Source of the DNA: a virus
Taxonomy: Duplodnaviria > Heunggongvirae > Uroviricota > Caudoviricetes
IMG/VR virus record: IMGVR_UViG_2547132252_000009
DNA length: 7,819 nt
Reading direction: 5' to 3' (one strand)
Positions 3,546 to 5,677 of the stretch are shown here, piece by piece. The translations under genes and the position numbers were made by a program. Position 1 is the first letter of the stretch, and each line of letters opens with the position of its first letter. The notes under the pieces are model-generated. The model saw only the letters and a list, made by a program, of their open reading frames with translations. It had not been told where the DNA came from and searched no databases.

Positions 3546-3971
3546 TTAATGCACAGCCAGAGTGTTTCCTGCCGGGCCACCACGATTCATCTGATCGAAC
3601 AGAACGATCGCTGATGCAACGAAATCATCAATATCTTTCACCAGCCGTTCCTTCGTCTCTACCAACTCCCGAAAATAAGCGGAACTGTGGCTGCGCATTC
3701 GGGCCACCAGCGGAGGCGGCATCGCTTTTTCGATCGCTGGTAACAACGCCTGAATTTTTTTAACCGCATCAGGAGTGTCTTTCTCCACCCAGCGGAAAAT
3801 TTTCTGAGTATTGCGAGCCATGGCTTCCGGATGGCTGTCGTCATACAGTTCCGGGAACGTCATTCCCAGCTCGAAATACGCTTTGGTAATTTTCGCAGCC
3901 GGTACTTTTTCGCCGTCCGGATGCGCCCAGGCATTCATCGCCATGCGGATGTGTTCATGCTTGATTTTCAT
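3546..3971 (-). CDS. ydaT: YdaT-like protein (CII-like regulator / putative toxin family)
   Basis: 141 aa starting MKIKHEHIR..., recalled as the Rac YdaT N-terminus; sits directly downstream of the Cro-like gene with a 17-bp overlap; GGAG 9 nt upstream of the ATG. Confidence 0.75.
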   Translation of the reverse strand: MKIKHEHIRMAMNAWAHPDGEKVPAAKITKAYFELGMTFPELYDDSHPEAMARNTQKIFRWVEKDTPDAVKKIQALLPAIEKAMPPPLVARMRSHSSAYFRELVETKERLVKDIDDFVASAIVLFDQMNRGGPAGNTLAVH

Positions 3972-4227
3972 GAATCAACTCCGGCGCATTTGATGTGTTA
4001 ACCTTACATCCAACAGGTAAACCGTCGGTTGGGTTAGGATAAATATCTGGGCGGATTTCATGCGGGGTAACTTCCCACTTCATTAGTTGGCATAACGGAA
4101 TTACCTGCTTTGGGGGAACGCCAAAGCTAAACCATTGCCAAACAGTCTGTTGAGCGACCCCCATATAACGACCTATTTCAGCCTGAGTGTATTTCTGCCT
4201 AATTTTTTCGCGAGTGCTATCTAGCAT
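3955..4227 (-). CDS. ydaS: Cro-like HTH regulator (YdaS-like)
   Basis: 90 aa; HTH motif AEIGRYMGVAQQTVWQW; ATG 4227 preceded by GGAGG (5-nt spacer); divergent from the repressor gene across the operator region. Confidence 0.8.
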   Translation of the reverse strand: MLDSTREKIRQKYTQAEIGRYMGVAQQTVWQWFSFGVPPKQVIPLCQLMKWEVTPHEIRPDIYPNPTDGLPVGCKVNTSNAPELIHENQA

Positions 4228-4260
4228 TTTGCCCTCCTCTAAAAACTATAAGCAAAGCCT

Positions 4261-4299
4261 ACAATAAAAAACTGTATGCAATCAACAGTTTTTTATTGT
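4261..4299. promoter_or_regulatory. Operator: perfect 15-bp inverted repeat ACAATAAAAAACTGT / ACAGTTTTTTATTGT with 9-bp spacer, in the divergent ydaS / repressor intergenic region
   Basis: 4261-4275 is the exact reverse complement of 4285-4299. A further ACAG/CTGT mini-palindrome lies at 4306-4328. Candidate -10 TATAGT for ydaS (minus strand, 4243-4248) and TAAAAT (4324-4329) for the repressor gene. Confidence 0.7.
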
Positions 4300-4335
4300 G
4301 ATGCTTTTAACAGTATTTACCTGTAAAATTGAATA

Positions 4336-4737
4336 ATGATGAGCGCCCTAGAAGTATCTATGTACAGAATCAGCAAGCTTCTTCAGGAAACTGGATGGAG
4401 CCAGGCTGAGCTTGCCCGTAGAATTGGTGTGACACAACAAACTGTTCAACAATGGGTCAGCGGTAAGGCTACACCTAAAGCCTCAAGTTTGGATAAACTG
4501 GTTGAGGTTTCAGGGCATCCATTGCATTGGTTTTTATTGCCTCCTGAAGAGTGTGAGCAAATTTTCACCCCTGACACGATGAAAATTGGTCCTCGCCAAC
4601 GCGAACTGCTCCAAGCTTTTAGTGCGTTTCCTGAGGAAGACCAAGAAAAAATGCTTCAAGAAATCAAAGACAAGAAAAAATCAATGGAAGAAACCATTGC
4701 TAGGTGGCTGGCGGCACAAAAAAGCCGCCGGGCGTGA
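4336..4737 (+). CDS. paaR2: CI-like XRE-family repressor, PaaR2-like
   Basis: 133 aa; HTH SQAELARRIGVTQQTVQQWVSG; first gene of a three-gene operon with a small antitoxin and a ParE toxin; divergent from the Cro-like gene. Confidence 0.8.
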   Translation: MMSALEVSMYRISKLLQETGWSQAELARRIGVTQQTVQQWVSGKATPKASSLDKLVEVSGHPLHWFLLPPEECEQIFTPDTMKIGPRQRELLQAFSAFPEEDQEKMLQEIKDKKKSMEETIARWLAAQKSRRA

Positions 4738-4764
4738 CCACAGTACAAGAAGAGGAGTTATGCC

Positions 4765-4956
4765 ATGGGTACAGCCCTTTCTCCGATAGTTTCAGAATTC
4801 GAAACTACCGAACAAGAAAACAGTTACAACGAATGGTTGCGCACTAAAGTAACGTCAAGCCTTGCAGACACTCGCCCCGCAATTCCACATGACGAGGTAA
4901 TGGCTGAAATGGAAAATCTTATTGCTCAAATTGCTGTAACTAACAAGAGCGAGTAA
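4765..4956 (+). CDS. paaA2: Small acidic antitoxin, PaaA2-like
   Basis: 63 aa, acidic; GAGGAG 6 nt upstream of ATG 4765; its stop overlaps the toxin start (TAATG). Confidence 0.8.
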   Translation: MGTALSPIVSEFETTEQENSYNEWLRTKVTSSLADTRPAIPHDEVMAEMENLIAQIAVTNKSE

Positions 4957-5243
4957 TGTTACCCATTTTATGGCTACCGTCTGCTCGCGATGATTTGCGC
5001 CAGATCATAACTTACATCGCCAAGGAGAACCCACCGGCAGCACGTAGACTAAAAATACGCATTGAAACATCGGTATTACCTCTATCTGAGCATCCGTACT
5101 TATATCCACCAAGCGAACGGGTTTCTGGATTGAGAGAGATCGTGACCCACCCTAACTACATAATCCTGTACAGAGTAGCTGCTTCAAGCATTGAGATTGT
5201 AAGCGTGACACATTCTCGGCGACAATTTCCCTTCTCTATCTGA
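4956..5243 (+). CDS. parE2: ParE/RelE-superfamily toxin, ParE2-like
   Basis: 95 aa; ParE-like N-terminus MLPILWLPSARDDLRQIITYIAKENPPAARRL; translationally coupled to the upstream antitoxin. Confidence 0.85.
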   Translation: MLPILWLPSARDDLRQIITYIAKENPPAARRLKIRIETSVLPLSEHPYLYPPSERVSGLREIVTHPNYIILYRVAASSIEIVSVTHSRRQFPFSI

Positions 5244-5261
5244 GTTGAACAATTTTCATAC

Positions 5262-5284
5262 TCCCTCTTTCGAGGGATTTTTTT
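5262..5284 (+). terminator. Rho-independent terminator after parE2
   Basis: tccctc-tttc-gaggga hairpin (6-bp stem, 4-nt loop) followed by a T7 run at 5278-5284. Confidence 0.6.
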
Positions 5285-5294
5285 GCCCAAAACA

Positions 5295-5334
5295 ACAATT
5301 AAAAACTGTTGACACAAAAACAGTTTTTTATTGT
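5295..5334. promoter_or_regulatory. Second operator copy (ACAATTAAAAACTGT, 10-bp spacer, ACAGTTTTTTATTGT) with a perfect TTGACA -35 in the spacer, upstream of the ydfA operon
   Basis: Right half-site 5320-5334 is identical to 4285-4299; left half 14/15 identical; TTGACA at 5309-5314. A -10 is not clearly identifiable (TAGATT at 5335-5340 is too far). Confidence 0.55.
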
Positions 5335-5520
5335 AGATTACATACACCAACCACCCACCCCGCCCCACAGAACGCCGGGCAATACTTCGAGTTACCAAGC
5401 AGTGGTCAGGGGGTAAGTAGCCAGCCCGAGGCGTATGAACATGACGGCAGGGTTCAACTTTAATAACTATGCAGCAGGTTTTTGTTCCGCTACCCGGCGT
5501 TAAGGGGAAATGAGGTCAAC

Positions 5521-5676
5521 ATGGATACTATCGATCTTGGCAACAACGAATCTCTGGTGTACGGCGTGTTTCCCAACCAGGACGGTACATTCACCGCGAT
5601 GACGTATACCAAAAGCAAAACGTTTAAAACCGAAAATGGTGCCCGTCGCTGGCTGGAAAGAAACTCAGGTGAGTGA
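5521..5676 (+). CDS. ydfA: YdfA-like small protein (51 aa)
   Basis: ATG 5521 with GAGG 5 nt upstream; sequence MDTIDLGNNESLVYGVFPNQDGTFTAMTYTKSKTFKTENGARRWLERNSGE recalled as Qin YdfA. The track's longer ORF from 5482 is a likely N-terminal over-extension. Confidence 0.75.
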   Translation: MDTIDLGNNESLVYGVFPNQDGTFTAMTYTKSKTFKTENGARRWLERNSGE

Positions 5677-5677
5677 T

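Follow-up and report, generated by a model that had tools for sequence, protein, structure and literature searches.

What controls the ydfA-dicF-dicB operon in the stretch of viral DNA analyzed here (IMG/VR record IMGVR_UViG_2547132252_000009; the whole 7,819 nucleotides are referred to below as the window)? A reading made from the sequence alone proposed that an operator of the nearby genetic switch recurs upstream of ydfA around a -35 hexamer, forming an analogue of the lambda early-left promoter PL at which one repressor would govern both the switch and the operon. Position, a published transcription start, co-variation with the switch, and the symmetry between PL and PR all support this reading, and positions 5295-5346 are very likely the early-left promoter/operator (the PL/OL equivalent) of a CP-933M-type lambdoid prophage.

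Prophage CP-933M and its gene order

The region at window positions 3900-5700 is 100% identical to many Escherichia coli O157:H7 chromosomes, EDL933 (at 1.254 Mb) among them, and the window is the cryptic, lambda-like prophage CP-933M of E. coli O157:H7. Jurenas et al. (PMC8630535) placed a paaR-paaA-parE homologue in CP-933M. The gene order is DnaC-like, O-like, YdaT-like, Cro/YdaS-like, switch, helix-turn-helix (HTH) repressor, PaaA-like, ParE-like, ydfA, ydfB, DicF, and dicB, and the parts that matter here are:

3546-3971, minus strand: YdaT-like gene (open reading frame list, EDL933 annotation, Pfam)
3955-4227, minus strand: Cro-like regulator of the YdaS family (Pfam YdaS_toxin)
4336-4737, plus strand: immunity repressor, 133 aa, DicA/PaaR2 family, with a phage-434-like HTH (Pfam HTH_3)
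4765-4956, plus strand: PaaA-like antitoxin (PDB PaaA2, E = 1.4e-20; Pfam PaaA2)
4956-5243, plus strand: ParE-like toxin (ParE2, E = 3e-36, 67% identity; Pfam ParE_toxin)
5521-5676, plus strand: ydfA (DUF1391), which opens the operon (Pfam E = 1.7e-28; named ydfA in EDL933)
6916-6967, plus strand: DicF small RNA inside the operon (Rfam RF00039, 76.9 bits)
7153-7341, plus strand: dicB, cell-division inhibitor (EDL933 annotation, open reading frame list)

DicF is the sole match in an Rfam search of the whole window at the gathering threshold. The antitoxin and toxin genes (4765-5243) are read as co-transcribed with the repressor gene. With a toxin that shares 67% identity with ParE2 and an antitoxin that is a clear PaaA2 paralogue, the locus is not paaR2-paaA2-parE2 itself. 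In the open-access literature we found no paper on the CP-933M operators, and 'paaR1' matches only the PAAR proteins of type VI secretion.

The window differs from EDL933 in several places away from the control region. A 34-bp loxP-like sequence, ATAACTTCGTATAATGTATGCTATACGAAGTCAT, lies at 451-484, one base off canonical loxP and flanked by tandem copies of ~189 bp (262-450 and 485-672) of a DUF1627 gene, which the insertion interrupts relative to EDL933. The junction between loxP and DUF1627 is absent from 5,426 complete E. coli genomes and from a plasmid collection, where only the lox part matches, and it looks like an engineering scar or artificial edit. There are also two one-base deletions relative to EDL933, one at 533 within the duplicated segment and one at 2259 in a T-run, where the O-like replication gene is split into open reading frames at 1715-2176 and 2164-2916.

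A 15-bp element shared by the switch and the ydfA promoter region

The 15-bp element on which the sequence-only reading was built is present as described: ACAGTTTTTTATTGT occurs exactly at 5320-5334 (plus strand) with a 14/15 inverted copy at 5295-5309 (minus strand), the latter reading ACAATTAAAAACTGT on the plus strand and differing by one base from the switch copy. Further exact copies of ACAGTTTTTTATTGT are found in the divergent switch at 4261-4275 (minus strand) and 4285-4299 (plus strand), so the PL operators share sequence with the PR/PRM switch of the same prophage, ~1 kb upstream. With at most one mismatch, the element has four matches in the window versus none in 200 dinucleotide-preserving shuffles. 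The looser pattern ACAGT-N7-TGT matches five times versus 0.20 expected, always at the PL site or the switch, and adds a third switch 15-mer at 4310-4324. The five putative operators, to which no strand is assigned, are:

5295-5309: OL2-like, promoter-distal; ACAATTAAAAACTGT, invariant in 13 related loci
5320-5334: OL1-like, promoter-proximal, filling the promoter spacer; ACAGTTTTTTATTGT, identical to the switch copies
4261-4275: OR1-like, within the PR (Cro-side promoter) spacer; exact copy of ACAGTTTTTTATTGT
4285-4299: OR2-like; invariant in 12 related switches, in which the adjoining spacer varies
4310-4324: OR3-like; ACAGTATTTACCTGT, abutting the repressor-promoter -10 TAAAAT (4324-4329)

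The gap between 15-mers is 10 bp at the PL site and 9 bp in the switch, with centre-to-centre distances of 25 bp for the PL pair and 24 and 25 bp for the switch 15-mers. The PL site holds only two 15-mers rather than three tandem operators (OL1-OL3), and the position at which a third would fall (~5270-5284) is taken by a terminator hairpin.

How a repressor would read these elements is a separate matter. They had been labelled half-sites, a term that fits poorly, as every 15-mer has an internal dyad, ACA[A/G]T-N5-A[C/T]TGT, and the switch contains the third copy at 4310-4324. Given this dyad, the 434-like HTH of the repressor, and the form and layout of the phage 434 operators, each 15-mer most likely serves, by analogy, as a full operator that binds a single repressor dimer in the style of phage 434. 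The other way to read the site is as a single composite, in which the whole 39-40 bp inverted repeat is bound by a tetramer or higher oligomer and the 15-mers are true half-sites. The perfect 15 + 9 + 15 bp inverted repeat in the switch, the perfect symmetry of sister PL alleles, and the oligomeric nature of the PaaR2-family repressor (PMC8630535) speak for such a site. However, the 4310-4324 copy is isolated, its neighbor being 25 bp away, each internal dyad resembles the 14-bp operators of 434, and the O157:H7 allele tolerates a change of the gap from 9 to 10 bp; we therefore regard a composite site as unlikely, and it would alter the stoichiometry of binding, not the function of the locus.

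A transcription start maps immediately downstream of the operators

The predicted TTGACA is present at 5309-5314, its first T being the last base of the left 15-mer. The promoter and transcript features on the plus strand are:

5309-5314, plus strand: -35 TTGACA, read from the sequence
5334-5339, plus strand: -10 TAGATT, the best promoter candidate, whose first T is the last base of OL1; invariant across 13 loci
5346, plus strand: early-left (ydfA-dicF-dicB) transcription start; Cappable-seq start 1254684(-) in EDL933
5350-5510, plus strand: C-rich leader common to prophages of many immunity types; 95% identical to CP-933P

The spacer between -35 and -10 in the O157:H7 allele is 19 nt, an unfavourable length that falls outside the 16-18 nt typical of sigma-70 promoters. 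A consensus promoter scan missed PL because it allowed only spacers of 16-18 nt; a custom scan found it, and the published start agreed.

Mapping the transcript start was among the checks suggested with the original reading, and a Cappable-seq map of EDL933 provides it (PMC10469882, Tables S5-S7; gene coordinates identical to NZ_CP008957.1, with the EDL933 record coordinate equal to 1260030 minus the window position). Start 1254684(-), assigned to ydfA (RS06125) and seen in 6/8 conditions with a mean relative read score of 2.4-7.6, corresponds to window 5346, 7 nt past the predicted -10 TAGATT, and the first gene of the transcript is ydfA (DUF1391). The signal is ~100-fold weaker than that of the repressor's own promoter. 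The combination of a strong repressor promoter with weak PR and PL is consistent with the pattern expected of a repressed prophage, but the weak start at PL could reflect a poor promoter rather than repression.

The ~175-nt leader (5346-5520), which at least 14 immunity types conserve, opens with a C-rich, G-poor tract, ACCAACCACCCACCCCGCCCCACAG. Leader folding gave no structure signal (z = +0.95), and an Rfam search of region 5240-5560 at E <= 1 gave no match; the C-rich tract could be related to Rho loading or antitermination. We also note a further Cappable-seq start inside parE, at window 5139 (EDL933 1254891, minus strand), in three stationary-phase conditions with a relative read score of 6-14.

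The divergent switch has the same arrangement

PL on the plus strand aligns with the switch on the minus strand, with the -35 and -10 at equivalent positions. The Cro-side promoter is:

4285-4249, minus strand: PR, with TTGATT (4285 to 4280), an 18-nt spacer, TAGGCT (4261 to 4256), and the start at 4249 (from sequence and Cappable-seq)

Its start, 1255781(+), maps to window 4249 on the minus strand and is assigned to the Cro-like gene in 6/8 conditions with a score of 0-22 (PMC10469882); it lies 7 nt after TAGGCT. Another candidate for the PR -10, TATAGT (4250 to 4245), was dropped because the mapped start falls within it. The repressor start, 1255694(-), is the strongest of the region (8/8 conditions, score 361-653; PMC10469882) and maps to window 4336, which is the A of the ATG; the mRNA is therefore leaderless, as has also been reported for paaR2. 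Counted from the last base of a 15-mer (5334, 4261, and 4324, respectively), each of the three starts (5346, 4249, and 4336) is exactly 12 nt further on; each is also 7 nt past a TAnnnT hexamer whose first T belongs to the 15-mer as well. The repressor promoter has a poor -35 region (4300-4306) that adjoins the 4285-4299 operator, an arrangement suggestive, by analogy, of lambda-style activation of this promoter by the repressor.

The repressor is 42% identical to PaaR2 over residues 37-133, its C-terminal two-thirds, and 28% identical to DicA over almost the full length (133 vs 135 aa). Its HTH is 40% identical to that of 434 cI, with the recognition helix TQQTVQQ compared with TQQSIEQ in 434. 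A PDB sequence search with the repressor returned only generic HTH matches (434 cI, HipB) and no PaaR2-family structure. The Cro-like protein has no detectable similarity to the YdaS of CP-933P, in keeping with a difference in immunity specificity. Where the Cro-like and YdaT-like genes meet (3961-3978) there is a perfect TTGATT-N6-AATCAA inverted repeat, TTGATTTTCATGAATCAA; the same motif is reported for the YdaT of CP-933P (PMC9986795), and the repeat probably marks a PRE-like promoter.

A putative terminator hairpin precedes PL

Upstream of the operators lies one further feature:

5262-5284, plus strand: terminator-like hairpin, TCCCTC-TTTC-GAGGGA (5262-5277), followed by T7 (terminator scan)

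The 6-bp stem is G+C-rich and folds at about -9 to -10 kcal/mol. Sister alleles keep the stem and vary the loop (TTTC, ATTC, or ACTC), and a hairpin with a T-run occupies the same relative position upstream of PL in 8/14 immunity types. The hairpin is probably, by analogy, the counterpart of lambda t_imm, ending the repressor-paaA-parE operon. PL had been placed just after the parE2 terminator and upstream of ydfA: the terminator is where it was said to be, but the toxin gene that it follows is a paralogue with 67% identity, not parE2. That the terminator insulates the ydfA operon from toxin-antitoxin read-through, as was also proposed, is plausible.

Might the operator repeat instead be an RNA element, a second terminator or stabilizer at the 3' end of the toxin-antitoxin transcript with no role as protein-binding DNA? 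As RNA, 5286-5345 does fold at -14.2 kcal/mol (z = -5.7). Any inverted repeat would fold in this way, however, and this one lacks a following T-run and lies beyond a proper terminator. The same elements are present in the divergent switch, where such an RNA role is inapplicable, they co-vary with the switch across immunity types (see below), and transcription starts 12 nt past the repeat. We consider an RNA role extremely improbable.

The promoter/operator segment is exchanged together with the switch

A leader anchor, CACCCCGCCCCACAGAACGC (5356-5375), recovered 120 viral contigs, in which at least 14 unrelated sequence types lie upstream of the common leader. For 14 immunity types we compared a 72-nt PL segment with the 2.4 kb upstream, using 16-nt windows at a threshold of at least 13 matches; a matrix of longest shared words was too crude for degenerate operators and was replaced by these windows. 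Two hexamers precede the anchor in all 14 types: TTGACx or TTTACx, whose first base is 40-47 nt from it, and TAnnnT or CAnnnT, whose last base is 12-17 nt from it, usually with a 17-nt spacer. In 13/14 types, matches to PL cluster solely or mainly in the intergenic region that separates the divergent Cro-like and repressor genes. Own-type match counts are 21, 10, 6, 22, 7, 24, 6, 24, 35, 0, 15, 3, 2, and 20, compared with a cross-type mean of 0.53, high cross-type values being confined to pairs of visibly related types.

Because 13 of the 14 types match their own switch, the promoter/operator changes together with it, and, as in an immunity module, the segment is exchanged along with both repressor and switch. 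From the sequences, this co-variation is as would be expected if one repressor reads both sites. The immunity module in this large prophage family thus ends exactly at the early-left transcription start, and operators and promoters are therefore predictable for at least 14 immunity types. One immunity type (locus L039) has a second PL-like cluster (11 window matches) 2404-2456 nt upstream of the anchor, well upstream of its switch, which is possibly a third operator region.

Comparison with CP-933P, Qin, and phage 434

An element of this kind is well known and has already been demonstrated in two related prophages. In CP-933P, PL933P lies beside parE2, has three operators, and has a -35 and -10 identical to those of PR933P; a PL933P gfp fusion is repressed ~100-fold by PaaR2 and by YdaS, and PaaR2 is reported to form octamers (Jurenas et al. 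2021, PMC8630535). We located the CP-933P sequence using a primer from that paper. The two prophages come from the same strain and share a gene order (ydaT, ydaS, switch, repressor, paaA, parE, PL, leader, dicB region), and in both, PL lies directly downstream of parE in a paaR-paaA-parE-type operon, upstream of the common leader. In both, the PL promoter resembles the prophage's own PR, and the C-terminal region of the repressor is shared (42%).

Window 5350-5510 is 95% identical to the DNA directly downstream of PL933P, whereas the promoter/operator parts are unrelated, and in the vicinity only ydaT (88%) is also homologous. With homology confined to ydaT and the leader, the non-homologous segment is 3983-5349, from the Cro-like gene to the PL -10; lambdoid immunity regions classically span this interval. 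The two prophages are likewise unrelated in the repressor HTH and in the Cro-like protein. The CP-933P operators are GTTTAGTAA-type repeats, unrelated to the ACAGT-N7-TGT form of the window, where the operators are instead ACAGTTTTTTATTGT-type, of another immunity specificity. CP-933P has three operators or four repeats compared with two 15-mers at the PL site of the window, and it lacks the downstream ydfA and ydfB that the window carries.

Inside the ydfA-dicB operon of the window, at 6394-6651 on the minus strand, is an antisense 85-aa open reading frame with CxxC motifs that is annotated as hypothetical in EDL933. In the corresponding position, between PL and dicB, CP-933P also has an opposite-strand gene, annotated 'ECs_2282 family putative zinc-binding protein'.

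The dicBp promoter and DicA operators of the K-12 prophage Qin, reportedly due to Bejar et al. in 1988, offer the second comparison. In Qin, dicBp lies upstream of ydfA, is the PL analogue, and is repressed 22-fold by DicA, whose operators lie both between dicA and dicC and between dicA and dicBp; in K-12, the transcript was shown to extend as far as dicB (Ragunathan et al. 2023, PMC10448788). Window PL and dicBp drive the same operon (ydfA, ydfB, ..., dicF, dicB), the window start being assigned to ydfA, and in both, the operator in the promoter spacer is repeated in the divergent switch and a short DicA-family repressor is encoded upstream. In the window, the toxin-antitoxin pair and a terminator lie between the repressor gene and the promoter, whereas Qin has no such pair and no clear terminator there. 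The K-12 sequence reads TTGACC, 17 nt, and TAATCT, with a DicA-type operator in the spacer; this operator, TGTTAGTCATGGCTAA, differs from that of the window, and the 17-nt spacer is canonical. The Qin leader is shorter, and what it has in common with that of the window is limited to the ~35 nt preceding the ydfA start codon.

Phage 434, whose operators and layout we read from its annotated genome, has the same arrangement. The 434 operators have the 14-bp form ACAA-N6-TTGT, including OR3, ACAGTTTTTCTTGT, and the order OL2, -35, OL1, -10 is exactly that of window PL: each promoter hexamer has its first T in common with an operator, OL1 occupies the spacer, and the operator ends are ACAA/TTGT-like, with ACAA or ACAG in the window as in OR3. 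The recognition helices of both repressors keep the Gln-Gln...Gln pattern, and the operon is transcribed in the direction leading away from the repressor gene in the window, as it is in 434 and lambda. Operator length is 15 bp in the window and 14 bp in 434, so that one dimer per 15-mer is an analogy. The window also has two PL operators, compared with three in lambda, 434, and CP-933P, and a 19-nt PL spacer, compared with 17 in 434 and lambda; its repressor is 133 aa long and lacks the LexA-like cleavage domain, whereas that of 434 has 210 aa. Among the gene, Pfam, and Rfam assignments downstream of window PL, neither an N gene nor nutL was detected.

A model for control of the operon

As in a PL/OL region, a sigma-70 promoter overlapping the operators lies on the opposite side to PR and directs transcription away from the repressor gene. 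The two 15-mers bracket the -35 and fill the spacer up to the -10, and RNA polymerase starts at the mapped A5346, from which it would transcribe the leader, ydfA, ydfB, DicF, and dicB. By homology, the 133-aa repressor, which would be made in large amounts from its leaderless mRNA, is predicted to sit on both operators in the resting prophage and block PL; the Cro-like protein probably binds the same sites. The hairpin and T7 probably end the repressor-paaA-parE transcript, which would leave the operon dependent on PL alone. We speculate that cooperative or looping contacts with the switch operators ~1 kb away may also occur.

E. coli O157:H7 carries four copies of DicF/DicB, and the site is the predicted control point that keeps one of them silent; it also extends the circuits studied in CP-933P and Qin to the paralogous CP-933M locus. 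The 434-like layout offers a concrete binding model for a repressor of the DicA/PaaR family; current understanding of lambdoid regulation is unchanged.

The O157:H7 allele and its sister alleles

Among 12 loci of this immunity type, the three switch 15-mers never change, although the sequence separating the first two does. The PL operators, TTGACA, and TAGATT are likewise constant in 13 related loci, amid flanking sequence that varies on both sides. In sister alleles the repeat is perfectly symmetric (ACAATTAAAAACTGT, 9 bp, ACAGTTTTTAATTGT; for example, in O121:H19 and at loci L051 and L096), and this 15 + 9 + 15 form is present in at least four other sequence backgrounds. The O157:H7 allele (111 nt), which is found at >=99% identity in 295 complete genomes, differs by an extra A in the gap and one A-to-T change. 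The extra base gives an operator gap of 10 bp (9 in the sisters) and a promoter spacer of 19 nt (18 in the sisters).

Could such an allele be a non-functional relic, a duplicated operator neither bound nor used in a decaying cryptic prophage? The prophage is defective, and the spacing change affects both the operator gap and the promoter. Yet the 111 nt are conserved at >=99% in those 295 genomes, the operators are invariant where the flanks vary, the start is active and the repressor very strongly transcribed, and the toxic products of the operon, DicB and DicF, need repression (PMC10448788), making a relic very improbable.

Lambda OL strengthens and tunes repression at OR by DNA looping, and the PL site might likewise serve mainly as an auxiliary looping operator that tunes the switch ~1 kb away, its promoter in O157:H7 having essentially decayed. 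The 19-nt spacer (18 nt in sister alleles), the low start signal (relative read score 2.4-7.6), and the reported octamers of PaaR2 (PMC8630535), whose C-terminal region the window repressor shares, are in keeping with this. But a capped 5' end is reproducibly found at exactly the predicted position in 6/8 conditions, a weak signal is expected of a repressed promoter, with PR, which is necessarily functional, equally weak, and TTGACA and TAGATT are invariant across alleles. A mainly looping role is in our judgment quite improbable; it is also compatible with the early-left promoter/operator, of which it is a variant rather than an alternative.

For the early-left promoter itself, the 19-nt spacer is unfavourable and so may weaken PL. 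We raise tentatively, and with more doubt than conviction, the idea that the insertion and substitution are derived in O157:H7 and constitute an attenuating 'domestication' change. If so, PL would be weaker and the phasing of cooperative repressor binding altered, with less leak of DicB and DicF or, in the O157:H7 lineage, a shift in the threshold at which the bistable CP-933M switch flips.
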